From the NCBI RefSeq assembly GCF_029504745.1, contig NZ_JAQFIQ010000007.1:30001-62000 (forward strand): a stretch of DNA of 32,000 bases. The letters are read 5' to 3'. Positions within the stretch are counted from its first letter, which is position 1. Each line of letters begins with the position of its first letter. Made by a program: the position numbers and the translations under genes. The stretch comes from Breznakia sp. PF5-3. Lineage in GTDB: Bacteria > Bacillota_I > Bacilli_A > Erysipelotrichales > Erysipelotrichaceae. The notes beneath the pieces were generated by a model. The model was not told where the DNA came from and did no database searches. It worked only from the letters and a program-made list of their open reading frames with translations. This document shows, in pieces, positions 4,832 through 29,091 of the stretch.

Positions 4832-5248
4832 ATGCAAAGAATTCAAAGCAAGTTGACTGTATTTTATGAAGGTCCTTTTTGGGTTGGTGTTTATGAACGA
4901 ATTGTAGATGGTGAAATGGAAGTTTGTAAGATTACCTTCGGAAGTGAACCAAAAGATTATGAAGTTTACGCTTTCCTATTACAGAACTGGCATCAACTAA
5001 GATTTAAGAAACATGTTCAAACAAATGAAAAACCAAAACAGGTAAGTCCTAAGCGAATGCAACGGATGATTACAAAACAACTTCGTGAAAGAGGTGTGGG
5101 TACAAAGTCGCAACAAGCGATAAAACAACAACAAGAAGAAGGTAAAGAGGAAAGAAAAAAACAAACAAAATTACAACGAGAACAAGCAAAAAGACAACGC
5201 TTTCTTTTGAAACAAGCAAAGAAGAAGCAAAAACATCGAGGACATTGA
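4832..5248 (+). CDS. yjdF: YjdF family protein (DUF2992)
   Basis: MQRIQSKLTVFYEGPFWVGVYERI..KITFGSEP N-terminus and a Lys/Gln-rich basic tail ending KKKQKHRGH, as in B. subtilis YjdF. Start moved from the listed TTG (4808) to the ATG 7 nt after AAGGAGG. Confidence 0.8.
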   Translation: MQRIQSKLTVFYEGPFWVGVYERIVDGEMEVCKITFGSEPKDYEVYAFLLQNWHQLRFKKHVQTNEKPKQVSPKRMQRMITKQLRERGVGTKSQQAIKQQQEEGKEERKKQTKLQREQAKRQRFLLKQAKKKQKHRGH

Positions 5249-13639: not shown

Positions 13640-14200
13640 ATGAAGAAACTTAGAATCAGGAGTGAATATGTCATTTTTATTTTGAGAATGTTTGTAATCT
13701 TCAGCGTTCTTGTTTTTGTTGTAACTACTTTTATCTTTCGAACGGTGCGAATCAATGGACAAAGTATGGAACCAACATTACAAAGCGGAGAATATGCATT
13801 TTCAAACAGATTGGCAGCAGATGAAGGGAATATCAATCGATTTGATGTAATTGTAATTGATAACATTGAAGAAGATTATGTGGTGAAAAGAGTAATTGCA
13901 CTCCCCAATGAAACCATATCTTACAAAGATGGAAAGTTATATATTAATGGTGAATGGTATGAAGAACCATTCTTAGATCAAGAATATATTGCTTTGCATA
14001 CAATGAATAATCAAATTACTTTTACGCAAAATTTTGGACCAATCACATTAGGTGAAAATGAATATTTTGTACTTGGTGATAACCGATTGAATTCAAAAGA
14101 CTCTCGGGTCGTTGGTCCAATTCCTGAAAAAGACATTGTTGCAAAAGATGTAATTGTAGTATATCCGCTAAATAGTATACGTGTAGAAAGTTCCAACTAA
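13640..14200 (+). CDS. lepB: Signal peptidase I
   Basis: N-terminal TM, catalytic Ser box GQSMEPTL, Lys box VKRVIALPNE, and box E GDNRLNSKDSR. 186 aa. Confidence 0.92.
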   Translation: MKKLRIRSEYVIFILRMFVIFSVLVFVVTTFIFRTVRINGQSMEPTLQSGEYAFSNRLAADEGNINRFDVIVIDNIEEDYVVKRVIALPNETISYKDGKLYINGEWYEEPFLDQEYIALHTMNNQITFTQNFGPITLGENEYFVLGDNRLNSKDSRVVGPIPEKDIVAKDVIVVYPLNSIRVESSN

Positions 14201-14226
14201 TTTTTTAATTATTGGAACCTTTTTTG
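14190..14226 (+). terminator. Weak terminator-like hairpin after lepB, overlapping the -35 of the next promoter
   Basis: gttccaa (14190-14196) / ttggaac (14212-14218), 15-nt AT loop, then T6 (14220-14225). The stem is short, so this is tentative. Confidence 0.35.
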
Positions 14227-14238
14227 TTTATTTCCGTC
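14214..14238 (+). promoter_or_regulatory. ECF-type promoter P1 (GGAACC-N15-CGTC) upstream of sigma gene 1
   Basis: GGAACC 14214-14219, CGTC 14235-14238. Same motif and spacing as at 20795. ECF sigma promoters classically carry GGAAC at -35 and CGT(C) at -10. It lies 30 nt upstream of ATG 14268, which fits autoregulation. Confidence 0.6.
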
Positions 14239-14267
14239 AATATGTTAAGAAAGGATGAAAATGGAAT

Positions 14268-15593
14268 ATGAGCAGATTGAAAAAAGAAGAGATTCAAAAA
14301 TTTCTAGATGGAGACGATAGTGTTTTTCCTGAGATTTTTGCTGCTTATCGTAATAAGATTAATTATCTTGCGATAGAAATCTTACGAAACCAGGCAGATT
14401 GTGAGGAAGTAGTTCAAAATACGTTTATTAAAATCATTACCAAACGTAAGGATTTACGTGATGCTAGTGCTTTTAATACATGGATTTATCGAATTGCTTA
14501 CAACGACTGTATGGATATATATCGGCAAAATAAAAAGGGTAAAACAGGTATGAATAATGACTACACTCTAGAAAATTATTCTGACAACAAAGGAGAGCCA
14601 AACGATGTGGTGAGTAAAAAGGCAATTTTAGAAGCAATTCAAAGCGAAATTGATGGCCTTCCAGAGGATATGAAACAAGTGTGTTTGTTAAGATTCGTTG
14701 GTGAATGTAGCCTTGAAGAAATCTCTGAAATCATGAGTATTCCAAAAGGCACAGTAAAGAGTAGGCTAAACAGGGCAAAAGTAAAACTTCGAGAAGGGCT
14801 GGTTGATAAGCATGTGACTCCAGCAATCTATATGTCATTGTCATTTACACCTTTGGTATTTAAGTTGTATGCATCGTTAGTAAAACAACAAGAGATGCAA
14901 CCACTTGTAGAAACAAAAGTTGCTAAAGTTATTGAAAACGCAACAGGAGTAACAGCAGGAGTAACGGTCGCAAGCGGAGGAATGATTATAGGATTTGGTA
15001 GTGCAGTAATAGGAACATCTATATTATTAGCATTATTTGGCACTTATACGATTATAAATCCAATTATTGATCAAACGGCTGAAGTTGTAAAAATTGAGGA
15101 AATCAATTATTTGAAAGATCTTACAAATGAAAATTTGCAGATTGTTCTCATGTTCAGTGGAGAACCAGATGCAAAAGATATTAGTATAACATTTGTTGAT
15201 GAAAATACAACGATCGAGGCTGAATCCGTTGACAATGAAAACTACATGTTTGTTGCGAAGGCGAATGGAACATATCATGTAGAGTATGGTGGGGTAGCAC
15301 AGGATATCAAAGTTGATAACATTGACAAGCAAAGCCCTAAATTGAAAAGTTTAGAAAAGGAAGAAGGATTACTTAAGATTATAGGTAGTGATGATTTTTC
15401 TGGCATTGATTTCGATAAATCATACGTTGAAGAGGGTTCCAATAAGTTTGATTTGATCAAAATTGATGATACATCTGCATTTTTCAAAGATGCAGTTAAG
15501 AAAAAGGCAAAGCTGTATTTGTATGATAAGGTAGGAAATTACCAGGTCTATGAGATCAATGCAACAGATACAGTGAGCAATACAGATGGGTAG
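14268..15593 (+). CDS. Membrane-tethered ECF (sigma-70 family) sigma factor fused to a TM helix and an extracellular Ig-like C-terminal domain
   Basis: aa ~20-90 form sigma region 2 (EEVVQNTFIKI..AFNTWIYRIAYNDCMDIYR). aa ~125-180 form region 4 (LPEDMKQVCLLRF..SLEEISEIMSIPKGTVKSRLNRAK). The TM is GGMIIGFGSAVIGTSILLALFGTYTII. About 175 aa of ectodomain follow (NGTYHVEY..VDNIDKQSP; LYLYDKVGNYQVYEI). It is paralogous to 27790-29091. Confidence 0.8.
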   Translation: MSRLKKEEIQKFLDGDDSVFPEIFAAYRNKINYLAIEILRNQADCEEVVQNTFIKIITKRKDLRDASAFNTWIYRIAYNDCMDIYRQNKKGKTGMNNDYTLENYSDNKGEPNDVVSKKAILEAIQSEIDGLPEDMKQVCLLRFVGECSLEEISEIMSIPKGTVKSRLNRAKVKLREGLVDKHVTPAIYMSLSFTPLVFKLYASLVKQQEMQPLVETKVAKVIENATGVTAGVTVASGGMIIGFGSAVIGTSILLALFGTYTIINPIIDQTAEVVKIEEINYLKDLTNENLQIVLMFSGEPDAKDISITFVDENTTIEAESVDNENYMFVAKANGTYHVEYGGVAQDIKVDNIDKQSPKLKSLEKEEGLLKIIGSDDFSGIDFDKSYVEEGSNKFDLIKIDDTSAFFKDAVKKKAKLYLYDKVGNYQVYEINATDTVSNTDG

Positions 15594-15693
15594 TTTCATA
15601 AAATTAGGTCTATGAAACAATACACTGTATATCCATAAAGCAATTTATGGAGAAGTGAAAGATTATAAAATTAGAATGGAGGGAGTGAAAGTT

Positions 15694-18600
15694 TTGAGAC
15701 GTAAATACGTAAAAACATTAAAGATGTTTAAAAGGTGTTTTCTTACAGCACTGGCATTAGGTATTACACTTACGGCAATAAACCTGCCAAAAATGGATAT
15801 CCATGCTCAAACAGAGGATGTTCGCTATGATTTGCAAACGGAATTAAGCGAAGATAAAAAAGAACTTCGTATTGATTTATTAGCTTATGCAAATAGGAAT
15901 GATGTTGAAATAACGGCGATTGGTAACCCTGATGGGACCATCACGGATGGAGCAAAAACGTCATATGTTTCTGTAACAAATGAAACATTGACATTTGTGG
16001 TGAACTACAAAATATTAGAAGAGAAAGATGGAAAAATAAAAGAAATCTCAAAGACAAAAGAAGTTGAATATGAGGTGGATCAATTTGGTAAAGAAGAAGA
16101 GGCACAGCCTCAAGCATTAAGTGATCCATTGGCACCATTTTCATCTTTAAAAGCAAATATGAGTTTTAGAAATGCTTTTAATGTATCTCATACAAAAGAT
16201 GGGTTATACTATCTTTCTGATAATTCTATGGAATTAGGGTATCACTATAATGAATATGTGAAATTTTTGCTTAGCAAAGCACGTTGTACTACATCAAAGT
16301 ATTGGGAAGGCTGGTATGCGAAGTTTGCTGCAGTATCAAAATATAAAGTTGATTTCTCAAAAGATTTTAAAGTTACAAACGTAATATCTTCAAATCCAAC
16401 ATTATATGGAGATGGGTTCACGTTAGGATTTCAAACAGATCCAAACTTTACATATACAACAGGTAAAGGGGGTTCTATAGGAGTTTACCGTAATGGTAGT
16501 GACTATGGGGCTCGCAATGGTGTAGTATTTGAAGTTGATTATCATGATAACTCTCCAGATGGAATGTGGCATGATATAGGATTAGGTGGAAATCACTTAG
16601 CAATTCATACAACGGATGCTTATGGAAATGAATCAACTCCAGTTGCTTCTTGGTTCGGTGTAAAACACACAGGAAGTCTAACTGCATTCAATGTGACTTG
16701 GACAATTACAGATAAAGCTACAAACACTGGGACATTGACATTTACATATGGAACATACAATTTGAAATATACAAATTTCAGACCACATGAAGTATTTGGT
16801 GGGTCAGTAAACAATCCTACAGCAGCATATTTAACATATACTGGAGTAATCTTGAAAGATTATGGTTCAAATAACAAACCATTCCAAATCACAATGACAG
16901 ATTATTCTTATCTTGAAGATGAAGTAACTGCAAGTGATGGATTTATTACCCAAACTCAAGCAAAAGCTTTGGCAAACCAAAATGGATTAATTCTTTATAA
17001 CAATGCATCTGCAGTTTCTACTGCTGGAGATAGTGTTACACCTACGGTTTCAACACCTGCATGGAGCAACATTAAATCTGGTTTAGTAGGTACTTATGAT
17101 GTGACATATGCTTATGGAACAGCATCAAAAACAGTAAAATTAAGCGTAATTAAAGATGGATCAATCATTTCACCAAACAAGGATTTCTCACTTTATGCAG
17201 AAAATGCTTCCTTGTTACAAAGTGAAGCAATTGCATTAAGTTCAATGAATGATTTAGTATCTGTTCATGATGCAAGTGTAACGATGGCAAATGGAACGCT
17301 TCTTGCACCAAATGCAACAACAAGTGCTTGGTCATCAATCAAAGCTGGGGTTGTAGGAAATTACGTGATTACTTTCTATTATGGAACAGGATCAAACTAC
17401 ACAGCAAAAAACGTTACATTATCAGTTGTTGCTGATAAGAAACATGAAATATATGCAAGTGATGGATTTATTACCCAATCACAAGCTAAGGCACTTACGA
17501 GTATGCAAGGATTTATTCCTTACAACCAAGCAAAAGTAATTACTAATGAAGGTGTTACTACGGTGCCAAGTACCGTTGCTACGAACTATTGGAATGAAAT
17601 TAACACAGGAACAATCGGTTCTTATAACGTTACATATTCTTATGGATCAGGAACAGCAAGAGTATCAAAAACAGTAAAATTAAATGTTGTGAAAGATGGA
17701 ACTGTGTTCCCTCCAGATAACAGTTTTGCATTATATGCAGAAGATGGTTTTATTAAACAAAGTCAAGCAAAAGCACTTACATCAACAAGCCAATTAATAC
17801 CTTATAACAATGCGAGCGTAACATTGGCTGATGGAAGTAGTGATGTACCATTCGTTAGTTTAAATACTTGGTCAAATATTGTGAGTGGAACGATTGGTAG
17901 CTACGATATCGTATATATGTATGGTGCTGGTGCTAACCTTAAATATAAAGTTGTGAAATTAAACGTTATTGAAGATGGTGGTATTATTGCACCAGATAAG
18001 AGTTTTGCATTATATGCAGATAATGGAACGATTTCACAAACCCAAGCATCTGCACTTACAGGTACATCACAATTAATCCCTTATAACAATGCGAAAGTAA
18101 TTTTGGCGAACGGAACACGTGCAGAACCAAATGTATCTGCTCCAACGTATAGCGAAATTGTGAGTGGGGTTGTAAAGACTCATAAAGTTACATATAGTTA
18201 TGGAGTGCTTACAAACAAAGTATCTAAAGAAGTAGACTTACAATTAATTGCTGATAAGCGTCATGAAGTTCGCGCAGAAGATGGCTTCATTTATGCAACA
18301 CAAGCGAAAGCATTAACAAATCAAAGTGAATTAATTCCATTTAATAGTGCAAGTGTTATAACAAACACTGGTCAAAGTGCACAACCGGTTGTAACAACAG
18401 GAAGTTGGGCTAACATTGTAGCTGGGGTAACTGGTTCATATGATATTACTTATAGCTATGGAAGTGGAACAACACAAGGATCAAAAACAGTAGTCTTGAA
18501 TGTTGTACCAGATGGAACAATATTCCCACCAGATAAAGCATTTGCAGTATATGCAGAAGATGGTTTAATCAATGTGGAACAAGCGAAGAAGTTAACAGCA

Positions 18601-20691
18601 CAAAAAGATCTTATTCCATATAACTCAGCATATGTAATGTTGAAAAATGGAACGATTGTAGATCCAGATGTATCTACTTGGGATTGGGTAAAAATCTCAG
18701 CTGGAATTGAAGGAACATATGATGTTAACTATGGTTATACAATTATGCCGAATACGGTTCAAAAAGGTGTAAAACTTACTGTAACAAAAGGTACAACACC
18801 ACCAAGTAATTCATTCTCATTATATGCTAGAGATGGATTTGTATATGAAGATCAAGCAAAAGCATTTACTGCCCAAAAAGATATGATTCCATTCAATGAT
18901 GCTTTTGTAACATTGAAGGATGGATCAAGTGTAGATCCACAAGTTGCAACACCTCATTGGTCAGCAATTAAGGATGGAACAATTGGTTCATATCCAGTAA
19001 CATATGGTTATACAAAGGGTAGTGAATCATTATCAAGTGTTGTGAAATTGAATGTTGTAGAAAATGGTTCTACCATTTCACCAGGACAAGATTTTGCAAT
19101 TTATGCTAAGAATGGAATTATTCAACAATCATCTGCACAAGCATTGATTAGCTTGAATGATTTAATTCCTTACAATGGTGCAAAAGTTACCCTTAAAGAT
19201 GGTAGTGAAGCTACGCCAACGGTAACAACAGCAGATTGGACAGCAATTCGTGCAGGAGTATTGGGTACATATTCAATTACCTATAGTTATGGTAGTGGTA
19301 CGAATACAGCATCTAAAGTGGTAACACTAAGAGTAGTACCAGATGGAAATCCTTCACCAGAAGGAGACTTCATCTTATATGCTTCAAATGGATTCATTTC
19401 AAAAGAGCAGGCGATGGCTATTACAAGTCAAAAAGATTTGATTCCATATAACAAAGCATCCGTTATCAAGGACGATGGTAGCGATGCAGAACCATCTGTA
19501 TCAACAACTAGTTATGCAGATATTAAAGCTGGTAAATTAGGTGTTTACAATGTAACATATCGTTATGGATTTGGTACAAACTTAGTTTCAAAAACAGTGA
19601 AACTTACAGTTCATGATGGTACTCCTTCACCAGGAGGAAATTATGTATTAAATGCTAAAGATGGTTTAATTTCTAAAAGCGAAGCAAAAGCATTAAGTTC
19701 AACAGCAGACTTAATTGCAATTAACGACGCATCTGTTTGGATGAATGATGGATCAACTGATGTTCCAGTGGTTACAATGCTACCACTTAATTGGTTATCT
19801 TTAAATGAAGGTATTATCAATAGCTATCCAGTTCTTTATAGTTATGGAAGTGGTAGTGATTATACACAAAAAACAGTTCGTGTAACAGTGTATGATGATG
19901 GTGGTATCATATCTCCAAATAAAGACTTTGTATTAAATGCTAAGAATGCAGTATTAACACAAAGTGAAGCAAAAACTTTAACAAGTGCAAGTGACTTAAC
20001 CGTTTATAATGATGCTCTTGTTAGTTATGCAAATGGTAACAAAGCAATTCCAAATACAACAGCTACAGAATTTGCTTCTATTAAAAGTGGTGTAGTAGGA
20101 ACTTACAATGTAACATATGATTATGGTACAGGATCTAATTACACAGAAAAAGCAGTGAAATTAGTAGTTGTAAAGGATGGCGCATTGATTGCACCAGATC
20201 GTAGTTTTGCGATTTATGCAGAAGATGTAACATTGAATCAAGATGAGGCACGCGCATTGACAAACAAAAATCAAATTACAAGTTTGGCACACGCGATGGT
20301 CTATATTGCAGATGGAACAACAGCAACACCTACGTTGTCACTTCCAGATTGGGATGATATCAAAGCAGGTATTTCAAATGATTATGCTGCTGATTTCACA
20401 TATCAAGATGTAACAGGTAGTATTAATATAAAAGTTACGCAAGAATATGTAACAAGATATCTATTTGACTATGATAATAACAAACGTATTGATGTTATTG
20501 ATTATGCTTATTTTGCAAGTTACTATAGTGGTGCAACACCAATGTCTCCATTGGCTTGGGCATTAACAGATTACCCACCAGGAGATGGACGTATCGATGT
20601 TATCGATTTAGCACACTTTAAACGTCATTACAGCGATTCGACACTTCCATTGGTTGAAGTAGAAGTACCAGCAGATTGGCGCTTAGAATAA
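15694..20691 (+). CDS. Giant secreted adhesin-like protein: signal peptide, N-terminal beta module, L-type lectin-like domain, 13 Ig-like (Big_3/DUF5011-like) repeats and a C-terminal dockerin-like module
   Basis: The likely start is TTG 15694, 11 nt after GGAGG (15678-15682); the listed GTG 15655 has no SD. Signal peptide RRKYVKTLKMFKRCFLTALALGITLTAINL..IHA/QT. Lectin-like blocks DGFTLGFQ, GGSIGVY, NGVVFEVDYHDN, NHLAIHT. Repeat signature DGFIxQxQAKALT..LIPYN.A.V...G....P.V....W..I..G..G(S/T)Y.VTY.YG.G....K.V.L.V. The C-terminus has two Ca-loop-like segments, DYDNNKRIDVID and PGDGRIDVID. Confidence 0.85.
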   Translation: MRRKYVKTLKMFKRCFLTALALGITLTAINLPKMDIHAQTEDVRYDLQTELSEDKKELRIDLLAYANRNDVEITAIGNPDGTITDGAKTSYVSVTNETLTFVVNYKILEEKDGKIKEISKTKEVEYEVDQFGKEEEAQPQALSDPLAPFSSLKANMSFRNAFNVSHTKDGLYYLSDNSMELGYHYNEYVKFLLSKARCTTSKYWEGWYAKFAAVSKYKVDFSKDFKVTNVISSNPTLYGDGFTLGFQTDPNFTYTTGKGGSIGVYRNGSDYGARNGVVFEVDYHDNSPDGMWHDIGLGGNHLAIHTTDAYGNESTPVASWFGVKHTGSLTAFNVTWTITDKATNTGTLTFTYGTYNLKYTNFRPHEVFGGSVNNPTAAYLTYTGVILKDYGSNNKPFQITMTDYSYLEDEVTASDGFITQTQAKALANQNGLILYNNASAVSTAGDSVTPTVSTPAWSNIKSGLVGTYDVTYAYGTASKTVKLSVIKDGSIISPNKDFSLYAENASLLQSEAIALSSMNDLVSVHDASVTMANGTLLAPNATTSAWSSIKAGVVGNYVITFYYGTGSNYTAKNVTLSVVADKKHEIYASDGFITQSQAKALTSMQGFIPYNQAKVITNEGVTTVPSTVATNYWNEINTGTIGSYNVTYSYGSGTARVSKTVKLNVVKDGTVFPPDNSFALYAEDGFIKQSQAKALTSTSQLIPYNNASVTLADGSSDVPFVSLNTWSNIVSGTIGSYDIVYMYGAGANLKYKVVKLNVIEDGGIIAPDKSFALYADNGTISQTQASALTGTSQLIPYNNAKVILANGTRAEPNVSAPTYSEIVSGVVKTHKVTYSYGVLTNKVSKEVDLQLIADKRHEVRAEDGFIYATQAKALTNQSELIPFNSASVITNTGQSAQPVVTTGSWANIVAGVTGSYDITYSYGSGTTQGSKTVVLNVVPDGTIFPPDKAFAVYAEDGLINVEQAKKLTAQKDLIPYNSAYVMLKNGTIVDPDVSTWDWVKISAGIEGTYDVNYGYTIMPNTVQKGVKLTVTKGTTPPSNSFSLYARDGFVYEDQAKAFTAQKDMIPFNDAFVTLKDGSSVDPQVATPHWSAIKDGTIGSYPVTYGYTKGSESLSSVVKLNVVENGSTISPGQDFAIYAKNGIIQQSSAQALISLNDLIPYNGAKVTLKDGSEATPTVTTADWTAIRAGVLGTYSITYSYGSGTNTASKVVTLRVVPDGNPSPEGDFILYASNGFISKEQAMAITSQKDLIPYNKASVIKDDGSDAEPSVSTTSYADIKAGKLGVYNVTYRYGFGTNLVSKTVKLTVHDGTPSPGGNYVLNAKDGLISKSEAKALSSTADLIAINDASVWMNDGSTDVPVVTMLPLNWLSLNEGIINSYPVLYSYGSGSDYTQKTVRVTVYDDGGIISPNKDFVLNAKNAVLTQSEAKTLTSASDLTVYNDALVSYANGNKAIPNTTATEFASIKSGVVGTYNVTYDYGTGSNYTEKAVKLVVVKDGALIAPDRSFAIYAEDVTLNQDEARALTNKNQITSLAHAMVYIADGTTATPTLSLPDWDDIKAGISNDYAADFTYQDVTGSINIKVTQEYVTRYLFDYDNNKRIDVIDYAYFASYYSGATPMSPLAWALTDYPPGDGRIDVIDLAHFKRHYSDSTLPLVEVEVPADWRLE
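16921..20445 (+). repeat. 13 tandem, diverged ~255-285 nt (~88-90 aa) coding repeats (Ig-like modules)
   Basis: I counted 13 units from the recurring (L/I/V)YA(E/D/K/S)(D/N)GF..(Q/E)AKAL .. G(S/T)Y(D/N)VTY.YG motifs. Short identical DNA strings recur, e.g. aaaacagtaaaattaa at ~17131 and ~17671. Confidence 0.85.
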
Positions 20692-20744
20692 GCGAATATC
20701 GTAAATTTACATCATCAATTGATGTAGAAAGTATAGCTTTAGGT

Positions 20745-20775
20745 AAAGAGGATGCTAACGCATTCTCTTTTTTTA
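20745..20775 (+). terminator. Strong rho-independent terminator after the giant adhesin gene
   Basis: aaagaggatgc (20745-20755) / gcattctcttt (20760-20770), 11 bp with one G-U. The loop is taac and the stem runs into ttttttt. Confidence 0.8.
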
Positions 20776-20794
20776 CATTTTTTTATGAATTTAT

Positions 20795-20819
20795 GGAACC
20801 TTTTGCGCTGGATTCCGTC
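20795..20819 (+). promoter_or_regulatory. ECF-type promoter P3 (GGAACC-N15-CGTC) upstream of the cohesin-like gene operon
   Basis: GGAACC 20795-20800, CGTC 20816-20819. The flank TTCCGTCGATAT compares with P1 TTCCGTCAATAT. It lies ~60 nt upstream of ATG 20881 and just downstream of terminator 20745-20775. Confidence 0.6.
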
Positions 20820-20880
20820 GATATTACAGAAAGGAGCATTTTACATTGTAATTTTTATTTTATGTAAAGAGGAGGACGAA

Positions 20881-22413
20881 ATGAAATTGAAAATAAAGAG
20901 TAATAAATTCAAGATCCTGGCAGTTGTAGTTTTGGCTGCTATTGTGGCAATCCCAAGTATGTTGGCAGCAAAGCCTATGGATACGAAAGCGGATGAAGTA
21001 GATGGCGAACCTACTTTTGATATTGCACCAATACATCAGGTAACTAGAAATGATGGAGGAGGAGCATATGGAACACATGCTCAACAAAGCTATGTAGAAG
21101 ATGGTGTTCAATATTATCGTAATGGCGATATTATTGAAGTAAGCATCATGCTTCCTAAAGGACACGGTGCGACCGTATTCCAAGATGTTGTAAAATATGA
21201 CGAAGAGAAATTAACATTAATTTCACCTTTCACAGATATTAAAGCAACATTATCTAAAAACTATTTAGATAAAAGATGGTCAACAGAAGTGTCAAACCCA
21301 AATGCAGATACTTCACGTATTTTAGTATTTGGATCAGCAGCAGATTTTACAACTGGTGCTGAATACCAAGGTGGTAGTGTTGCTAGAATGTATTTCCGCG
21401 TTAATAATAATGTGGAATCTGATGCAGGTACAGCAATTACATTTGAATTCCCAGAATTCCAAACCGCTGGATATTCAAATGGAAAAGTTGTATATACACA
21501 CAGAGGATATGATGCAAATAACGATGCAGCTACTGCATTCTATCAAGCAGAACCAGTTACAATATATGCAAAAACACCTTCAAAAACAGTAAATGCACCA
21601 ACCCTTAACTTGAAGAATAGTTCAGCAACTATTTATGAAGGAGATTTATTTGATCCAGCTTCATACATAAGCAATGCTTCTTGTGAGGTTGATAAATCAG
21701 TAAGCAAAGACACTGTTGATATTAGTGAAGGAACTGGAGTTTATACAAAACATCAACCAGCAGCTGGAACTTATGTTTATAAATACAGCGTAACAAGTAG
21801 TACAGGAAAATCAACAGAGAAACAATTGTCTTTAAAAGTAACAGCAAGAACATATACAGTTGCTTCTATCGATGTAGATTCTAAAAAAATATCATTGCCT
21901 GTTGGAACAGCAAGTTCTGATTTAGAAGCAATGATTAATGAGATGAAAAAAGAAGACTTTAATGTAACTATTACTTGTAATGATGGTTCTAAATTTGTTG
22001 TTCCAGGAAAAGTATTGAATGGAAAAACAGATACTTACCGTATTGATGAAAACGATAAGTTATTAGCACAAACATTTAATGTTAACTTTACATTAGCATT
22101 GCCACTTGTTTCTTATGGAACAGATGGATCAAGAATTGTAACGCCATACAATGGAAGTTCAAGTTTTGTAAGTAATGTTGGAAATGGAAGAGCGGATGCA
22201 AAAGTTCCTGTTATTATCGGTACAGGTAATTCAGGAGGAAACAATACTGGAGGAAATTCTTCAGGAAAACCATCTACTGCACCTACAGCAGGAAGTAGTA
22301 ATGGTAGTGGTTCTGCAGCTTCAACAGGGGATACAACAAATGTAACATTCCTTGCAGTATTAGCTATTTTATCAGCAGGATTTATCGTACGTTCAAAATT
22401 TAAAAAACAATAA
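20881..22413 (+). CDS. Cell-surface anchoring protein: signal peptide, cohesin-like module, Ig-like domains, G/S/N/T linker and a cell-wall-sorting-like C-terminus
   Basis: Start ATG 20881 after agaggagg; the listed 20752 extension crosses a terminator and a promoter. Signal peptide KFKILAVVVLAAIVAIPSMLAAKP. Cohesin-like region ~21004-21575 (GDIIEVSIMLP..VFQDVVKYDEEKLTLIS..RILVFG..GGSVARMYFRVNN..GTAITFEF). Big_3-like SSATIYEGDLFDP..GTYVYKYSV. Tail GSGSAASTGDTTNVTFLAVLAILSAGFIVRSKFKKQ. Confidence 0.8.
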   Translation: MKLKIKSNKFKILAVVVLAAIVAIPSMLAAKPMDTKADEVDGEPTFDIAPIHQVTRNDGGGAYGTHAQQSYVEDGVQYYRNGDIIEVSIMLPKGHGATVFQDVVKYDEEKLTLISPFTDIKATLSKNYLDKRWSTEVSNPNADTSRILVFGSAADFTTGAEYQGGSVARMYFRVNNNVESDAGTAITFEFPEFQTAGYSNGKVVYTHRGYDANNDAATAFYQAEPVTIYAKTPSKTVNAPTLNLKNSSATIYEGDLFDPASYISNASCEVDKSVSKDTVDISEGTGVYTKHQPAAGTYVYKYSVTSSTGKSTEKQLSLKVTARTYTVASIDVDSKKISLPVGTASSDLEAMINEMKKEDFNVTITCNDGSKFVVPGKVLNGKTDTYRIDENDKLLAQTFNVNFTLALPLVSYGTDGSRIVTPYNGSSSFVSNVGNGRADAKVPVIIGTGNSGGNNTGGNSSGKPSTAPTAGSSNGSGSAASTGDTTNVTFLAVLAILSAGFIVRSKFKKQ

Positions 22414-22473: not shown

Positions 22474-25400
22474 ATGAAAAAATTCTTTAAATTATTTATC
22501 GCTGCATTTATAGCAGTAACATGTATTGTTCCTTTACAAAGTATTTCAGCGGCTTATGGAGATCCAGTAGAGCCAATTTACCAAATTTCACGTAATGATG
22601 GTGGAGGGAAATATGGAACACATAAGAACCCTGATTATAAAGAGGGAACTACACAATATTACCGTGATGGAGATATTATCGAGGTAGATTTCAGATTACC
22701 AGCTGATTCAGGAGTTCAAATTTATAACCAAGTTATTAAATATGACTCAGATCAGTTAGATTTATTATCATCAGATACAGATATTACAGGTACTTTATCA
22801 TCTACTTTCACAAGTAAGAATTGGTCAAGTACAACAGCAAGAGACAATAATGACAATGAAAAAATCTTAGTTTATGGGGGAAGTAATAACTTTGGAAACC
22901 CTGATACAAAAGATTATACAGGTGGAACGATTGCTAAGGTTTACTTCAAAGTAAAAAATGGAGTTGAATCAACAGCAGGAACACCAATTACATTTGAATT
23001 TATGAATTTTCAAACAGCAGAGTTTAAAAATAACAAAGTTTCTTATACACATATAGGATATGATCCTAACAACGATGCAGGAACGGTATACTATACAGCT
23101 CCTTCACAAACCATTCAAGTAAAGAAACCAAGTGTAACATTTAGTGCTAATGATGGATTTATTACACAAAGCCAAGCAAAAGCATTAAATACAAAGAATG
23201 ATTTAAAAGCTTATAATGATGTAAGTGCAAAATTAACTGATGGCACTAATATTGATGTGACAACAGATGCACAAAACTTCAATGATATTAAAGCTGGAAA
23301 AATTGGTTCTTATGATGTGACATATGGATATACACATGATGGAAATTCAGATAGTAAAAAAGTAAAATTAAATGTAGTATCTGATGATGCAGTTATCTCA
23401 CCAGAGAAAAATTTTGCTTTATCAGCAGAACATGCATTTATTACTGCATCGGATGCGAAAAAGTTAACGAATAAAACACAATTGATTTCACTTAACAATG
23501 CAAAAGTAACATTGAAAAATGGTACTAACGCTACACCTAATGTAGATGCACCTGCATTTGCTTCTATTCAAGCAGGAAGTGTTGGAACTTACGAAGTTAC
23601 TTATAGTTATGGAAGTGGGTCTGATACAGCAAGTAAAAAAGTGTTTGTAACGGTTGTGAAAGATGGTTCGGTGATTTCACCTAACAAAGATTTCTCACTT
23701 TATGCAAAACATGGATTTATTAAGAATACAGAAGCTAAAAATTTAACAAGTAGAACTCAATTGATTCCATATAACAATGCAGAAGTTACACTTGTAAATG
23801 GAGATAAAAGAGATCCTAGACCAACAGTAACAGCTGCTGAATGGTTATCAATTACTTCTGGTATTAAAGGAAGTTACAATGTTCTTTATGAATATGGTGA
23901 TGGAGCAAATGAAACAAGCTTGGTTGTTAAAATAACAGTCATTGATGAAAACGATCCAATCTCACCAAACAAAGAAGCAAGTCTATCTGCACAAGATGTT
24001 GAGCTTAGTGAAACAGAAGCAAAAGCGCTTACATCAAAGAATGATTTGATTGCTTTAAATAAAGCGTCTGTTACATTATCTGACGGTTCTGTGGCAACAC
24101 CAACGATAGCAAGTGTTGATTATGCTAGTATAGTATCGGGTAAAATTGGAATTTATCCAATTACATATACATATGGTAGTGGTCAAGGAAAAGTTGATAA
24201 GACAGTAAATGTAATCGTTAAAGAAGATAAAAAACATGTAATTACATATGAAGATAAGATTATTACTGTTGATCAAGCAAAAGCATTATCTAGTAAAGAT
24301 GATCTTAGAGTGGTAAACAATGTTCAAGTAACAGCAATTGATGGATCACATCCAAATGCAGTTGTTGATGCACCAACATGGAGTTCTATTAAAGATGGTA
24401 AATTAGGAACATACACAGTTACTTATAGTTATGGATACGGAGATAAATTAGTATCTGTAAATGCAAAAGTTACAATCGTTCCAAATGGTTCAGAAATTGA
24501 TGATAACGCAAGTTTATATGCGCAAAATGGATTCCTTGAACAATCATCTGCAAAAGCACTAGTAACTAGAAATGATTTAATTCCTTATAATGCAGCGTCA
24601 GTTACATTATTAAGTGGTGGAACAGCAACGCCAACGGTTGGAATGAGCGCAGGAGATTGGTACTTATTGTCGGCAGGAGAATTAGGTTCATATGATGTTG
24701 TTTATTCATATGCAAGTTTAAGCAAACGTGTTCTTGCAACAGTAATTAAAGATGGATCTATCGTTTCTGAAGATAAGACAGCAAGTTTATATGCAGAAAA
24801 TGCATTTATTGAATCAAGCAATGCTAAGAAATTAGCAAATAAAGAAGCACTTAGAGCATATAACAAAGCGTCTGTAACATTAATTGATGGTAGAACAGCG
24901 AACGCAACAGTAGATGTTGCAGCTGCTGATTGGTTAGCAATCCAACAAGGAACAGTTGGAGCATATGACATACTATATACATATGGAAGTGGAGATGGAC
25001 AAGTTAGCAAGCGTGTAAAAATTGTTGTTATCGATGATGATCCAATCATTTCTCAAGATGGGAAAGTTGCATTGAATGCAGTTGATGGTGAAATTGCGGA
25101 TACGGATGCAAAGAAAGTTACAAGCAAAGAAGACTTGATTCCATATAACAGTGCAAAAGTTACATTGGAAGATGGAACTATCGCTAAATTGGATGTAACA
25201 ATATCTACAAGTAGCTTAAATGCTATTAAAGCAGGTACGTTAGGTACTTATACTGTTACATACTCTTATGGAAGTGTTGGAAGCCCAAGTTATGTAAGTA
25301 AAACAGTAAAATTAGAAGTTGTAATTAAAACAAGAGCAATTCATATGTTTGACTATGATGATAACAAACGTATTGATGTTATTGACTTAGCACATTTCAA

Positions 25401-25569
25401 TAGAATTTATTCTAATTCTATGAATGTTTCTGCATATGATTTAATGTTAACTGACTTCAACAAAGATAAACGTGTTGATGTTATTGATTTAACACAGTTT
25501 AAATATTACTATTCTAATTCATTGATTCTTCCACCAACAGTGGATGTACCAGTTGAAATAATTCCATAA
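22474..25569 (+). CDS. Secreted adaptor-like protein: signal peptide, cohesin-like module, 8 Ig-like repeats and a C-terminal dockerin-like module
   Basis: Signal peptide MKKFFKLFIAAFIAVTCIVPLQSISA/AYG. Cohesin-like region ~22555-23133 (GDIIEVDFRLPADSGVQIYNQVIKYDSDQLDLLS..KILVYGG..GGTIAKVYFKVKNG..GTPITFEF). Eight repeats of the same family as in 15694-20691. Dockerin-like DYDDNKRIDVIDLAHFNRIY ... DFNKDKRVDVIDLTQFKYYY. Confidence 0.85.
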   Translation: MKKFFKLFIAAFIAVTCIVPLQSISAAYGDPVEPIYQISRNDGGGKYGTHKNPDYKEGTTQYYRDGDIIEVDFRLPADSGVQIYNQVIKYDSDQLDLLSSDTDITGTLSSTFTSKNWSSTTARDNNDNEKILVYGGSNNFGNPDTKDYTGGTIAKVYFKVKNGVESTAGTPITFEFMNFQTAEFKNNKVSYTHIGYDPNNDAGTVYYTAPSQTIQVKKPSVTFSANDGFITQSQAKALNTKNDLKAYNDVSAKLTDGTNIDVTTDAQNFNDIKAGKIGSYDVTYGYTHDGNSDSKKVKLNVVSDDAVISPEKNFALSAEHAFITASDAKKLTNKTQLISLNNAKVTLKNGTNATPNVDAPAFASIQAGSVGTYEVTYSYGSGSDTASKKVFVTVVKDGSVISPNKDFSLYAKHGFIKNTEAKNLTSRTQLIPYNNAEVTLVNGDKRDPRPTVTAAEWLSITSGIKGSYNVLYEYGDGANETSLVVKITVIDENDPISPNKEASLSAQDVELSETEAKALTSKNDLIALNKASVTLSDGSVATPTIASVDYASIVSGKIGIYPITYTYGSGQGKVDKTVNVIVKEDKKHVITYEDKIITVDQAKALSSKDDLRVVNNVQVTAIDGSHPNAVVDAPTWSSIKDGKLGTYTVTYSYGYGDKLVSVNAKVTIVPNGSEIDDNASLYAQNGFLEQSSAKALVTRNDLIPYNAASVTLLSGGTATPTVGMSAGDWYLLSAGELGSYDVVYSYASLSKRVLATVIKDGSIVSEDKTASLYAENAFIESSNAKKLANKEALRAYNKASVTLIDGRTANATVDVAAADWLAIQQGTVGAYDILYTYGSGDGQVSKRVKIVVIDDDPIISQDGKVALNAVDGEIADTDAKKVTSKEDLIPYNSAKVTLEDGTIAKLDVTISTSSLNAIKAGTLGTYTVTYSYGSVGSPSYVSKTVKLEVVIKTRAIHMFDYDDNKRIDVIDLAHFNRIYSNSMNVSAYDLMLTDFNKDKRVDVIDLTQFKYYYSNSLILPPTVDVPVEIIP
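23140..25325 (+). repeat. 8 tandem diverged ~270 nt coding repeats (Ig-like modules), same family as 16921-20445
   Basis: Units start at FSANDGFITQSQAKAL, LSAEHAFITASDAKKL, LYAKHGFIKNTEAKNL, LSAQDVELSETEAKAL, ITYEDKIITVDQAKAL, LYAQNGFLEQSSAKAL, LYAENAFIESSNAKKL and LNAVDGEIADTDAKKV. Confidence 0.85.
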
Positions 25570-25598
25570 ACCTTATGATAATGAAGGGAAGGTTATTT

Positions 25599-26675
25599 AT
25601 GAGAAAACTAAAAAAACAAATAGCTATTCTTACAGTATTGATAATTGCATTCATTACTTGTGCTAGCCCTTTACAGGCTGTGCATTATTCACAAGTGCCA
25701 AGTAATAATGGGGGACACCGTTTGCAAAATTCAATTGCATATGTAGGAGGTGGAAGAGCACCATTTACAGAAAATGGAGTGACGTATTATAATGCAGGAA
25801 ATGTGATCGAGCTAACGGTCACATTACCTGCTAATACATACGCAGTATCTTTGCAAGAAATCATTACCTATGATTTAAATCAAGTAGATTTGGTAACAAG
25901 TTTTAATGATATTCGTCAAACCTTTGGGCAATCCCTTTTGAATGAAGGATGGGCACAAGATGTATTTAAGATGAATGGAAACAATAATCAAATTTTACTT
26001 TCTGCAGCAGGAAGTGATTGGACTAATCACTCAAGTATTGCTGGTGGAGTTGTAGGAAAGATACGTTTTCGAATCAAAGAACAAACAACAACTAATGTTG
26101 GAACAAATATCAACATTAATTTTGTTTATCAAATTGCAGGAGCAAAACCAAATGGAAAAGGGTTGGCATATATTCATGCTGGATATGATCCAAGCAATGA
26201 AGGCGGTACCTATCAAGTATCTGCACCAACGATTTCAATTGCGGCTCATAAGATACCATCTGCACCAACGACACCTACCAATCCTGAAAAACCTACTGAT
26301 CCAGTCGTGGATTATCATCCAAGTGTTGTGATCGATAAGGAAATCAGTGAAAGTAAGAAAAAAGAGATTGCGGCAATTACAGCGAAACGGGATTATTCAT
26401 TCGCAAAATCGAATGATTTTATGAATGGAAAGAATTCGTATCGAAATATTGCGAAAATGTTGATTGATCAAATGGTAAAGACAAAAGATAAAATCAAATA
26501 TCAAACATATGAGTTTAAAGATCAATATTTAGATATAAAGGCTAAGAAGACAATTGTGAAAACTACTTGTTATACACATTATCTTTATATCGGGATGAGT
26601 TTTGTAGTAATTTTTGTAACATATGGTTATAAAAAATATTTAGAAGCGAATCGTAAAGTGAAATGGAGGTCTTAA
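25599..26675 (+). CDS. Membrane-anchored cohesin-like protein: signal peptide, cohesin-like module, Pro/Thr linker and a C-terminal TM helix
   Basis: Start ATG 25599 after gaagggaagg. Signal peptide KQIAILTVLIIAFITCASPLQA/VH. Cohesin-like region ~25680-26253 (GNVIELTVTLPAN..LQEIITYDLNQVDLVTS..QILLSAAG..GGVVGKIRFRIKE..GTNININF). Linker PSAPTTPTNPEKPTDP. C-terminal TM YLYIGMSFVVIFVTYGY followed by KKYLEANRK. Confidence 0.75.
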   Translation: MRKLKKQIAILTVLIIAFITCASPLQAVHYSQVPSNNGGHRLQNSIAYVGGGRAPFTENGVTYYNAGNVIELTVTLPANTYAVSLQEIITYDLNQVDLVTSFNDIRQTFGQSLLNEGWAQDVFKMNGNNNQILLSAAGSDWTNHSSIAGGVVGKIRFRIKEQTTTNVGTNININFVYQIAGAKPNGKGLAYIHAGYDPSNEGGTYQVSAPTISIAAHKIPSAPTTPTNPEKPTDPVVDYHPSVVIDKEISESKKKEIAAITAKRDYSFAKSNDFMNGKNSYRNIAKMLIDQMVKTKDKIKYQTYEFKDQYLDIKAKKTIVKTTCYTHYLYIGMSFVVIFVTYGYKKYLEANRKVKWRS

Positions 26676-26678: not shown

Positions 26679-26828
26679 ATGAACTGTGGATATGACATGA
26701 TGGCTTTGATATTATTCTTTATTACCGTGTTTGTTTGTAGCTTTTATATCATGAAATTAAAGCGTCAACATGCACAAAGTAATGTCTTACATGATCAATT
26801 TTCAAAATATTTTAAAAAAAATGATTAA
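26679..26828 (+). CDS. Small (49 aa) single-TM protein; not in the supplied ORF track
   Basis: The ATG lies 9 nt after GGAGG (26665-26669, inside the end of the previous gene) and 3 nt after its stop. Sequence MNCGYDMMALILFFITVFVCSFYIMKLKRQHAQSNVLHDQFSKYFKKND: one TM followed by a basic tail. Confidence 0.45.
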   Translation: MNCGYDMMALILFFITVFVCSFYIMKLKRQHAQSNVLHDQFSKYFKKND

Positions 26829-26832: not shown

Positions 26833-26858
26833 GGAACCTTTTTCGGATTATAAGCGTC
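26833..26858 (+). promoter_or_regulatory. ECF-type promoter motif P2 (GGAACC-N16-CGTC) with no adjacent gene
   Basis: GGAACC 26833-26838, CGTC 26855-26858. It shares GGAACCTTTTT with P1. The next CDS starts 273 nt downstream. Confidence 0.45.
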
Positions 26859-27038
26859 TCAATAATGAAGGGTAAATTATTTATCCTTTGCGGATATAGT
26901 TATTTTGCAATACAACAATTACTATTAAATATCATAACCGAATATTTATTCAATCGAAATTAATCCTTTCTTTATTCGATGGTATCAATTAGCCCTCAGT
27001 AGTTGGATGTATACTAAATGATTATCTTTCGCAACTAG

Positions 27039-27119
27039 ATATCGCTATCAACTAATTAAATACGCCTTCCCTGAACAATACATGTATTTAGTTAACCCCG
27101 ATAGCGATATATTTTTTTT
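27039..27119 (+). terminator. Long interrupted hairpin plus U-tract (terminator or attenuator) abutting the SD of the next gene
   Basis: atatcgctatc (27039-27049) is the exact reverse complement of gatagcgatat (27100-27110). Inner arms aactaattaaatac / gtatttagtt extend the helix. T8 at 27112-27119, then GGAGG and ATG 27131. Confidence 0.5.
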
Positions 27120-27130: not shown

Positions 27131-27592
27131 ATGAAAAAAATTATAATTAGCTCAATTTGCTTTGTTGCATTACTAGCTGGATGTTCTTCTGGTAGCAAGG
27201 GAAGTGAAAAAGTTTGTACAATGACACAAGGAGCTAGTGATGAATTAGAAGAAAAAATTACCATTTCTTATGATGGAGATACAGTAACAACCATTGTTTC
27301 AAAGACTACCATTGATGTAGAAAAAACGAAAACAGGTACAACAATGGAGGATTTAGAAAAGCTTGCAAAAGATGTTGATAAAGTTTATAACGCTATCAAG
27401 GGTGTAAAGTATACATATGAAAGCAAAGATAAGAAATTCTATGAAACGATAACTGTAGATATCAAGGAAGAGAATATGGAAGAATTACAAAACAAGGGAA
27501 TGATTAATATGTATGTTGATGAAGATGGAAAAATCTTAAAAGCTGACAAATTGATTGATTTCTTGAAAGATTCAGGAATGAAGTGTAAATAA
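27131..27592 (+). CDS. Lipoprotein, YehR/DUF1307-like
   Basis: Lipobox LLAGC (MKKIIISSICFVALLAGCSSG). ~150 aa with an alternating beta/alpha pattern (ITISYDGDTVTTIV..; YNAIKGVKYTYESKDKKFYETITVD; ..KADKLIDFLKDSGMKCK), typical of DUF1307 lipoproteins as I recall them. Confidence 0.6.
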   Translation: MKKIIISSICFVALLAGCSSGSKGSEKVCTMTQGASDELEEKITISYDGDTVTTIVSKTTIDVEKTKTGTTMEDLEKLAKDVDKVYNAIKGVKYTYESKDKKFYETITVDIKEENMEELQNKGMINMYVDEDGKILKADKLIDFLKDSGMKCK

Positions 27593-27712: not shown

Positions 27713-27739
27713 TGAACCATTTTTATGTTTATTTCAACT
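27713..27739 (+). promoter_or_regulatory. Diverged copy of promoter P1 upstream of sigma gene 2 (TGAACC-N17-AACT)
   Basis: TGAACCATTTTTATGTTTATTTCAACT compares with P1 GGAACCTTTTTTGTTTATTTCCGTC. The spacer string GTTTATTTC is identical, while both the -35 first base and the -10 CGTC differ. Functional status is unknown. Confidence 0.35.
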
Positions 27740-27789
27740 AATTATATGATAGGTTATATTTTTGTCATGTATTGAAAGGGGGCGATGCT

Positions 27790-29091
27790 ATGATGAGAAA
27801 AGTGGATGTGAAATATGTAGAAGCACTTCAACGCGGTGATTTGGAGGCTTTTAATGTAATTTACGATTATTATAAGAATTCCATTTATTTTTTTGTACTT
27901 AAATTTGTTGGTAATCAACAAGATGTTGAGGAAGTAGTACAAGATACGTTTGTCAATGCATATCGAAATATCAATATGTTGAAATCTTTGGATGCTTTTC
28001 ATTCATGGCTTTTTAGTATTGCTTACAGCCAAGCACAAATGGTATATCGAAGAAAATCACATGGTAATCTGATTGATGGGAATCTAGAAGAAATTGCTAA
28101 GGTTGAAGATTCACAAAAAAAAGAAATTGAAAATAAAGATATTCTTGGAGCTGTAGAAGATGAATTGTATAAATTGCCTGCAAAATATTCACAAGTAGGA
28201 CAATTGAAATACTTTGAAGAACTTTCGGTAAAAGAAATTGCAGAGGTCTTAAGTATTCCAGTCGGAACGGTTAAAACTAGATTAATGCGAATTAGAAAGA
28301 TGATATCTCCTGGTTTAGAAAAAAGAGGATATACACCAAAGAAATATTTTGGGTTTGCATTTACACCGCTTCTTTACCAAGCCTTTACAGCAATGATTAA
28401 CAATCATACATTGTCTGCTGAGCAATCAGTGTCAACGTTCAATACGATTCAAGAGAAGATTACTACTGGAGGAGGAACGGCCTTGTTGAGTGGTGTTTCT
28501 GCGACAGGTGCTATGGCATCTGCAGGTGTTAGTGCAGTAAATAAAGCAATGATTGGAGCAACTCTTATGGCAAGTGCAGTAGGTGGTGTTGTCATTTATC
28601 AAAACTTACATACGGAAGCTGCAGTAATTGAAGATATTGTATATTATCAAGATCTAACAAATAAGGATATTGAAGTTGCGGTTCTTTGCAATAAAGAAAT
28701 TGGTAGTGCGGATATTGATGTGTCGTATAACGAAACACCAGTCGTATTTCGTATAGAGGATAATAAGGTATTGTTTGATGCCAAAGATAATGGTGAATAT
28801 AAGATTAGTTTAAATGATGAAAATCAAGTCCTTACCATTGATAATATTGATAAGGAAGTTCCATTGATTCATAATGTGGCATATGATAACGATTTACTAA
28901 AAATTGAATTTGATGATGCAAATGCAATAGATTATCAAAAATCATATGTAAACTTTAATGAAAAATCATATACAATTTCAAAGCAAGGAACCGTTCATGA
29001 AAAATTGGATGGTGAGTTTGAAGTTGTGTTGTATGACTTGGCAGGGAATAAAGTCGGCTATAAGATAGACTTAAAGACATACAAAAATTAG
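27790..29091 (+). CDS. Second membrane-tethered ECF sigma factor fused to a TM segment and an extracellular Ig-like domain (paralogue of 14268-15593)
   Basis: Start ATG 27790 after aaaggggg. Region 2 EEVVQDTFVNAY..AFHSWLFSIAYSQAQMVYR. Region 4 LPAKYSQVGQLKYFEELSVKEIAEVLSIPVGTVKTRLMRIRK. Conserved FTPLLY linker, Ala/Gly-rich TM AMIGATLMASAVGGVVIY. Ectodomain YYQDLTNKDIEV.., NGEYKISL..IDNIDKEVP, VVLYDLAGNKVGYKI. Confidence 0.8.
   Translation: MMRKVDVKYVEALQRGDLEAFNVIYDYYKNSIYFFVLKFVGNQQDVEEVVQDTFVNAYRNINMLKSLDAFHSWLFSIAYSQAQMVYRRKSHGNLIDGNLEEIAKVEDSQKKEIENKDILGAVEDELYKLPAKYSQVGQLKYFEELSVKEIAEVLSIPVGTVKTRLMRIRKMISPGLEKRGYTPKKYFGFAFTPLLYQAFTAMINNHTLSAEQSVSTFNTIQEKITTGGGTALLSGVSATGAMASAGVSAVNKAMIGATLMASAVGGVVIYQNLHTEAAVIEDIVYYQDLTNKDIEVAVLCNKEIGSADIDVSYNETPVVFRIEDNKVLFDAKDNGEYKISLNDENQVLTIDNIDKEVPLIHNVAYDNDLLKIEFDDANAIDYQKSYVNFNEKSYTISKQGTVHEKLDGEFEVVLYDLAGNKVGYKIDLKTYKN

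Follow-up and report, generated by a model that had tools for sequence, protein, structure and literature searches.

A probable ECF-type promoter motif shared by a membrane-anchored sigma factor gene and a cohesin–dockerin locus in Breznakia

We analyzed a 32,000-nucleotide stretch of the genome of Breznakia sp. PF5-3 (contig NZ_JAQFIQ010000007.1, positions 30,001 to 62,000; hereafter the window), which encodes an extracytoplasmic function (ECF) sigma factor fused to a membrane anchor, sigma-1, together with predicted cohesin- and dockerin-bearing surface proteins. A bipartite motif, GGAACC followed after 15 or 16 nt by CGTC, was found at three sites in this locus: the promoter of sigma-1 (P1), the promoter of the cohesin operon (P3) and a third site before an RNA leader and a DUF1307 gene (P4; Table 1). 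The sites exist far above chance expectation, occur only at these positions, are conserved amid diverging spacers and change with the sigma lineage. Comparison of related loci leads us to propose, with a probability of roughly 0.8, that the motif serves the local sigma-1 as its cognate promoter and that sigma-1 would thereby regulate its own gene and a surface-assembly regulon.

The original prediction, made from the letters of this stretch, had described GGAACC-N15-CGTC as common to the starts of two operons. The two sequences that it quoted match the window exactly, and the motif is present at both starts. The distances were also close to those proposed: P1 lies 29 nt before the ATG of sigma-1 (predicted, about 30), and P3 lies 18 nt past the T-run of a terminator and 61 nt before the ATG of the first cohesin-like gene (predicted, just past the terminator and about 60 nt before the gene). 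The −35 element of P1 was placed inside the 3′ arm of a weak hairpin at the end of lepB, and this hairpin indeed folds and is followed by a T-run. An inspection by eye, described as not exhaustive, had reported no further GGAACC...CGTC pair, and this missed P4 with its 16-nt spacer. Scanning the window with GGAAC-N15–18-CGTC returned three sites, all of them intergenic and on the plus strand. The 15-nt spacer thus describes P1 and P3, but as a fixed rule it was rejected because orthologous sites have 15 or 16 nt.

The three sites share the −35 sequence GGAACCTTTT. Both they and the 17 sites identified overall, described below, combine a −35 element with an AAC core and a CGT-type −10 element, with ~16–17 nt from AAC to CGT, as in ECF-type promoters. 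Transcription is predicted to start ~7 nt past each −10 element, at ~14245 (P1), ~20826 (P3) and ~26865 (P4). A sequence scan for sigma-70-like promoters found none at either operon start, P1 or P3. When one mismatch was allowed, GGAACC-N15-CGTC matched the window twice (0.24 expected), and GGAAC-N15–18-CGTC matched three times (0.04 expected), a number reached in 0 of 100 shuffles.

The syntenic regions of sigma-1 orthologues, whose sigmas are 48–73% identical to that of the window, were used for phylogenetic footprinting. The pattern GGAACYTTYT-N10–13-CGYC matched 12 times in the 163 kb formed by the window and the related loci (0.005 expected) and gave 0 matches in paralogue loci. A relaxed pattern matched 19 times in 301 kb, comprising 17 orthologous sites, one promoter belonging to a paralogue and one probable chance match. 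All 17 of these sites, from eight genomes, occupy orthologous positions and are directed at sigma, fibre, cohesin or lipoprotein genes. The motif stands upstream of sigma-1 in seven loci (window, L001, L003, L005, L013, L014 and L016; L014 is from a Coprobacillaceae metagenome-assembled genome (MAG)), and upstream of the first cohesin-like gene in six (window, L001, L003, L004, L005 and L016). The third position, after a small open reading frame (ORF) and before the DUF1307 gene, carries it in the window, in L001 (20906, 15-nt spacer) and in L011 (11241, a GAAACC variant); the sequences of L005 and L016 stop short of this position. Across sites GGAACYTTYT and CGYC are invariant, with spacers and flanks ~40–60% conserved. 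An unrelated Na+/H+ exchanger gene separates fibre from cohesin in L003, where P3 has remained in front of the cohesin gene. The fibre–cohesin block of L004 is turned round and reads away from sigma, and a copy of the motif precedes each of the two genes, fibre and cohesin. In the region ahead of the L004 fibre gene (9844–9509, minus strand, equal to L012 1517–1852), the motif is followed by an unusually long leader of ~310 nt before the called start.

These data bear on two rival explanations. With a GC content of 33%, the window is rich in A and T and contains many T-tracts, and the likeness of P1 and P3 might be coincidence or a functionless remnant of a local duplication. However, the excess over expectation in both the window and the 163 kb, together with spacers that are unrelated between genomes in which the motif blocks are invariant, effectively refutes this idea, to which we assign almost no probability. 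Conservation alone does not name the binding protein, and the motif might also be the operator of a regulator that is not a sigma factor, with transcription coming from other promoters. We consider this improbable, as the half-sites are non-palindromic, have the sequences and spacing of ECF −35 and −10 elements, and keep a constant orientation to their genes at 25–90 nt before the start codons. Moreover, no sigma-70-like promoter was found near P1 or P3, and the sites invariably come with a linked ECF sigma gene.

The −10 element differs between sigma lineages. The PF5-3 clade has CGTC, and the Breznakia pachnodae clade has CGCC, both at P1 (L005, L013 and L016) and at P3 (L005 and L016; positions 9950 and 16371 in L005, 572 in L013, and 7949 and 14383 in L016). 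The sigma2 region also differs in the CGCC clade (AFNVWLYRIAYHN versus AFNTWIYRIAYND; AYND to AYHN and NTWI to NVWL). Across the two promoters the shift from CGTC to CGCC is a concerted change, and it may constitute a natural specificity switch worth testing.

The protein itself resembles sigma factors known to use such promoters. Sigma-1, whose sequence is 100% identical to a protein of Breznakia sp. PF5-3, contains only Sigma70_r2 (residues 24–90) and Sigma70_r4_2 (122–174) by Pfam, which places it among ECF (group 4) sigmas. Its best sequence and structure matches in the PDB were SigW (sequence E 2e-21) and sigmaE (sequence E 6e-17), then AlgU, with SigH also among the best, and no SigI chain appeared among the 17 sequence matches at E ≤ 1e-5. 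Sigmas of the SigW, sigmaE and AlgU type recognize −35 elements of the GAAC/AAC type. Region 4 of sigma-1 superposes on the sigmaE region 4/−35 DNA complex 2h27 in Foldseek, and the recognition helices are similar (GTVKSRLNRAK in sigma-1, GTVRSRIFRAR in sigmaE). C-terminal to sigma4, a predicted transmembrane (TM) segment and a predicted extracytoplasmic part are fused to the ECF core, an architecture kept in 16 homologues. In the AlphaFold2 (AF2) model, residues 245–263 form a hydrophobic helix and residues 276–431 form immunoglobulin (Ig)-like beta-sandwich domains at a pLDDT of 80–88; the linker helices at 185–226 have a pLDDT below 50. A search of 185,579 species genomes found full-length relatives of the fused sigma only in Breznakia, in a Coprobacillaceae MAG and in Erysipelotrichaceae MTC7.

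Alignment of the 16 fused sigmas over sigma-1 residues 178–200 and 281–424 revealed some invariant motifs. Directly after sigma4, TPxxY..S..FTP is invariant in 16 of 16 and is the sole conserved motif of the linker. The ectodomain has an invariant NIDKxxP and a nearly invariant YD..GN (Y419, D420, G423 and N424), the latter resembling the linkers of bacterial surface Ig-like repeats. This pattern points to a common sensing fold and to a cleavage or docking site that has been conserved.

Several observations weigh against the proposed reading. Because the AAC-N16/17-CGTC architecture is common to several Firmicute ECF sigmas, the sites could be read by a different one in the genome. The motif of sigma-3, a paralogue in the same strain (GAGAACTTTT...CGTC), differs only slightly from that of sigma-1, and cross-talk between them is possible. 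Around its −10 element P4 reads GCGTCTYA, which is close to a sigma-2-type variant of L008 and L021 and makes the assignment of P4 less secure. The sigma-1 orthologue of L004 has no ECF-type motif upstream, nor does sigma-3 of PF5-3 upstream of its own gene, and autoregulation is therefore not obligatory; the expectation that an ECF sigma controls itself fits the seven loci with a motif before sigma and fails in L004. On the side of the activation mechanism, Pfam showed no anti-sigma domain, be it ASD, zf-HC2 or FecR-like, in the linker that joins sigma4 to the TM helix, a part modelled at low confidence. One alternative is that the sites are genuine ECF-type promoters read by sigma-3, by sigma-2 (a second fused paralogue) or by an envelope-stress ECF of the SigV/SigM/SigX type, with sigma-1 as a target. 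We regard this as unlikely, though less so than the operator explanation: the motif travels with sigma-1 and its neighbours in eight genomes, paralogue loci lack the strict pattern, and CGCC at P1 and P3 occurs exactly in the sigma-1 subclade with an altered sigma2. It is on this linkage and covariation that the assignment to sigma-1 rests, and sigma-1, not another ECF sigma, would be the protein that binds the sites.

Collectively, phylogenetic footprinting in eight genomes, the concerted change at −10, the motif variants of the paralogues and the SigW/sigmaE-like core support reading the motif as an ECF promoter. They also support the original proposal that the fused sigma drives its own operon and the anchor/adaptor operon. 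The two-operon extent of that proposal was too small, because the third site in the window, P4, makes the regulon larger.

In the mechanism that we propose, region 4 of sigma-1 would read the −35 element GGAAC(C/T)TT(T/C)T, and region 2 would read the −10 element CG(T/C)C located 15–16 nt past GGAACC. Transcription from P1 would yield sigma-1 and the lectin/dockerin fibre, amounting to positive autoregulation, and P3 would direct the synthesis of two membrane-anchored cohesin-like proteins, a cohesin–dockerin adaptor and a small TM protein. P4, for which recognition by sigma-1 is probable, would give the structured RNA or leader and the DUF1307 lipoprotein. Basal sigma-1 would probably come from lepB read-through, which is possible because the lepB hairpin is weak. 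As an integral membrane protein, sigma-1 is presumably active only once its cytoplasmic domain has been freed. By analogy with IutY, ECF52 and RsgI, the membrane would hold sigma-1 inactive, and regulated proteolysis would set it free when the Ig-like ectodomain senses an extracellular cue.

Table 1 Features of the window discussed in the text.
Feature	Position	Strand	Description
lepB, signal peptidase S26	13640–14200	+	Pfam Peptidase_S26, E 1e-43
Weak hairpin and T-run at lepB end	14185–14225	+	Fold −10.6 kcal/mol; 3′ arm TTGGAAC overlaps P1 −35
P1, ECF-type promoter	14214–14238	+	tTGGAACCTTTTTTGTTTATTTCCGTCAATATg; GGAACC 14214–14219, CGTC 14235–14238, spacer 15 nt
P1 −35 element	14214–14223	+	GGAACCTTTT
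Shine–Dalgarno (SD) sequence of sigma-1	14247–14257	+	AAGAAAGGATG; kept in all orthologues
Sigma-1	14268–15593	+	441 aa; ECF core 1–180, TM helix ~245–263, two predicted extracellular beta-sandwich domains 276–431
Fibre gene	15655–20691	+	1678 aa as listed; likely start TTG 15694; signal peptide, lectin-like N-terminal domain, ~75-aa repeats, C-terminal dockerin
Intrinsic terminator, end of sigma–fibre operon	20745–20777	+	11-bp stem and T-run, −14.4 kcal/mol
P3, ECF-type promoter	20795–20819	+	aTGGAACCTTTTGCGCTGGATTCCGTCGATATt; GGAACC 20795–20800, CGTC 20816–20819, −35 GGAACCTTTT, spacer 15 nt
SD-like sequence at predicted 5′ end of P3 transcript	20828–20837	+	AGAAAGGAGC; ~45 nt before the real SD (20866–20875)
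Cohesin-like protein 1	20881–22413	+	510 aa; signal peptide, C-terminal TM anchor
Adaptor	22474–25569	+	1031 aa; N-terminal cohesin-like domain, repeats, C-terminal dockerin
Cohesin-like protein 3	25575–26675	+	Likely start 25599, 358 aa; C-terminal TM anchor
Small hydrophobic ORF	26679–26828	+	49 aa; conserved in L001 and L011, 59 aa in paralogous locus L009; closes operon
P4, third ECF-type site	26833–26858	+	GGAACCTTTTTCGGATTATAAGCGTC; −35 GGAACCTTTT, −10 CGTC 26855–26858, spacer 16 nt
Structured RNA/leader	26866–27119	+	~250 nt; 5′ hairpin 26867–26889; CU-rich loop AATCCTTTCTTT 26962–26973
RNA terminator	Arms 27037–27049 and 27100–27110, then U8, to 27119	+	Invariant 12-bp stem, directly before DUF1307 SD
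DUF1307 lipoprotein gene	27131–27592	+	Pfam DUF1307, E 2e-10; directly after leader terminator, likewise in L001 and L011
Sigma-2 candidate promoter	27713–27743		TGAACCATTTTTATGTTTATTTCAACTAATT; TGAAC-N16–17-(C/G)AACTAA form
Sigma-2, second fused ECF sigma	27772–29091		439 aa; Pfam; 29% identical to sigma-1 full length, 33% over core

The ~250-nt RNA that follows P4 is the most novel by-product of this analysis. Its sequence is 85% identical to the copy in L001 (20936–21200), and a further copy lies in L011 (11268–11528). The fold has a minimum free energy of −59.6 kcal/mol with z = −5.6, and RNAalifold on the three sequences gave 72 pairs, nine of them compensatory. No Rfam match was obtained for this RNA at gathering or permissive thresholds. 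A metagenome scan with AATCCTTTCTT-N65–95-AATACGNCTTCCC for more copies returned a single chance match inside an unrelated coding region, and the covariation consequently rests on three sequences. The RNA may be a candidate 3′-end small RNA (sRNA) with its own ECF promoter, or it may be the attenuator leader of the DUF1307 gene. Its conserved CU loop is complementary to SD-like sequences. Specific targeting of the sigma-1 and P3 leaders by this loop was considered and rejected as non-specific: among 26 gene starts examined with RNAduplex, sigma-1 ranked 5th and the cohesin-1 start (20881) 16th.

Like the sigmaE-dependent MicA, RybB and MicL, the RNA is structured, capped by a terminator, located at an operon's 3′ end and directly preceded by an ECF-type promoter. 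MicL, too, starts from an internal sigmaE promoter and ends at the terminator of its host gene. Unlike these sRNAs, a trans-acting role of the Breznakia RNA is speculative, given its non-specific pairing, and a cis-acting attenuator of DUF1307 is equally possible.

The proteins under P1 and P3 were assigned to cohesin–dockerin families on several lines of evidence. The dockerin module (PF00404) scored above its gathering cut-off of 22.9 bits at the C-termini of both the fibre (Dockerin_1, 24.7 bits) and the adaptor (27.1 bits), and orthologues are annotated as Dockerin_1. The legume-lectin domain of the fibre remained sub-threshold (E 1.7e-7). For the AF2 model of cohesin-like protein 3 (pLDDT 83), the top Foldseek matches in the PDB were almost all cohesins (E ~1e-5, target-normalised TM-score mostly 0.5–0.65). 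A profile of 15 cohesin-like copies matched ScaB cohesins in the PDB (E 1.7e-4). Pfam Cohesin (PF00963) was sub-threshold in 7 of 15 members, the best at E 3e-4 and below the gathering score. The model and profile matches support a cohesin fold, and the cohesin label holds at the level of remote homology. A homologue search with the cohesin-like domain fragment alone found nothing, and one with the full-length cohesin-like query found four orthologues. Cohesin–dockerin pairing among these proteins is predicted from the modules that they carry. No glycoside hydrolase is present in the operons, and the cargo is the lectin-like fibre. The C-termini of the cohesin-like anchors are formed by a hydrophobic segment and a basic tail, which is neither SLH nor a clear LPXTG signal.

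No terminator-like T-run occurs between sigma-1 and the fibre gene (15594–15654), and the two are probably co-transcribed. At the start of the cohesin operon, a listed ORF start at 20752, which would overlap P3, was rejected because orthologues begin with MKLKIK, at the counterpart of the ATG at 20881, and this ATG is preceded by a strong SD of its own. The SD-like AGAAAGGAGC at the predicted 5′ end of the P3 transcript is kept in six genomes (window, L001, L003, L004, L005 and L016), and no conserved start codon follows it. SD-like mRNA stabilizers at 5′ ends have been described in Bacillus, and AGAAAGGAGC may by analogy serve as such a stabilizer.

Upstream of P1, the lepB hairpin was rejected as a conserved feature, being found only in the window and L003 and not in L001, L005 or L016. 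A type I signal peptidase (S26) gene lies directly upstream of sigma-1 in most genomes (L001 9370–9900, L003 8624–9196, L005 9373–9936, L014 1086–1625 and L016 7345–7935, in addition to lepB of the window); it is divergent in L007 and inside a pilus operon in L009. In the case of Bacillus subtilis RsiV, site-1 cleavage is performed by signal peptidase. The adjacency of the S26 gene and sigma-1 could be plain synteny or a hint of site-1 cleavage of the fused sigma.

The paralogous sigmas have motifs of their own. Two copies of the TGAAC...(C/G)AACTAA form seen at sigma-2 are present in L007, one before the sigma gene and one before a gene of 1388 aa, and the sigma-2-type sites of L008 and L021 read GAAACC...GCGTCTTAC. 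Downstream of sigma-2 in the window lie genes for a Listeria-Bacteroides-repeat protein (29103–30272) and a protein of leucine-rich repeat (LRR) type. The third paralogue of Breznakia sp. PF5-3, sigma-3 (P0007), heads a second complete dockerin-fibre/cohesin/adaptor locus (L009, GCA_029504715.1, JAQFIO010000033.1), which adjoins a pilus operon (DUF7601/FctA and an S26 peptidase). Its sites stand before the pilus operon and the fibre gene (L009 421–446 and 8570–8595; L006 3707–3732 and 5541–5566). Elsewhere in the window, an azaaromatic (yjdF) riboswitch aptamer (RF01764) was detected at 4719–4815 (84 bits, E 6e-16), overlapping the listed start of the ORF at 4808–5248.

In kind, the system is well supported as an ECF regulon of the standard autoregulatory sort; its fused sigma is unusual, and its cargo is uncommon. 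ECF autoregulation, fusions of sigma and anti-sigma, and the analogy with SigI/RsgI are already known. ECF sigmas usually autoregulate, and their motifs are group-specific (PMC7826278); the ECF −35 carries an AAC motif, and specificity stems mainly from contacts between sigma2 and −10 (PMC4598750). The motif variants of the paralogues and clades described here fit this published view of group-specific motifs and −10 specificity (PMC7826278, PMC4598750).

Compared with SigW, sigmaE and AlgU systems, the locus shares a sigma that has sigma2 and sigma4 only, a −35 with AAC and a T-tract, a CGT-type −10 at 16–17 nt from AAC to CGT, and a copy of the promoter before the sigma gene. In contrast to them, sigma-1 is fused to a TM segment and ectodomain and has no separate anti-sigma gene, its −10 is CGTC or CGCC by clade, and its predicted regulon is a surface assembly instead of envelope-stress genes. 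A single polypeptide with ECF core, TM segment and extracytoplasmic domain, predicted here for sigma-1, is also found in IutY (ECF243, Pseudomonas putida) and ECF48/52/53 (e.g. SCO4117), for which activation by regulated proteolysis has been proposed or shown (PMC8999054). However, those proteins come from proteobacteria or actinobacteria, and their anti-sigma modules are FecR-like or of the zinc-finger type and accompanied by carbohydrate-binding domains, whereas sigma-1 has no detectable anti-sigma domain, its ectodomain consists of two Ig-like domains, and its full-length relatives were found only in Breznakia and two other Erysipelotrichales genomes.

A functional parallel concerns cohesin- and dockerin-bearing surface proteins. 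In Clostridium thermocellum, the SigI/RsgI pairs comprise paralogous sigmas with extracytoplasmic sensors, stringent promoter variants, limited cross-talk and autoregulation (PMC6056542; PMC4711584), and regulated intramembrane proteolysis of RsgI in cellulosome regulation is a precedent for sigma release (PMC4711584; PMC6056542). Breznakia likewise has several paralogous sigmas with their own promoter variants and predicted control of cohesin- or dockerin-bearing surface proteins. SigI, unlike sigma-1, does not belong to the ECF sigmas, and its anti-sigma RsgI forms a protein of its own; no separate anti-sigma gene was found adjoining sigma-1, and the locus thus falls outside the SigI/RsgI arrangement. 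The targets of SigI are polysaccharide-degrading enzymes and scaffoldins.

A wider but tentative view, which we hold to be possible and not the likelier case, is that lineage-restricted single-chain TM ECF sigmas, at least three in PF5-3 and ~6 in B. pachnodae, form promoter-insulated parallel circuits. Each circuit would serve its own surface assembly (a cohesin–dockerin fibre, a pilus operon, or LRR and Ig proteins) and would have been re-tuned mainly at −10 (CGTC, CGCC, CAACTAA and GCGTCTTAC). The sigma-1 circuit would also make the new ~250-nt RNA, an sRNA or riboregulator feeding back on the regulon, for example via its anti-SD-like CU loop.

For the biology of these bacteria, our results provide a testable wiring diagram of how insect-gut Erysipelotrichales (Breznakia) may turn on a non-cellulosomal cohesin–dockerin fibre, with three promoters, one sigma and predicted starts. 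Experiments are feasible, as B. pachnodae DSM 16784, the source of L016, is cultured and carries the orthologous locus. CGTC, CGCC and the paralogue variants offer a natural series for studying how sigma2 of ECF factors is re-tuned for −10 recognition, and sigma-1 would add a Firmicute example to the little-studied ECF sigmas that are membrane proteins.

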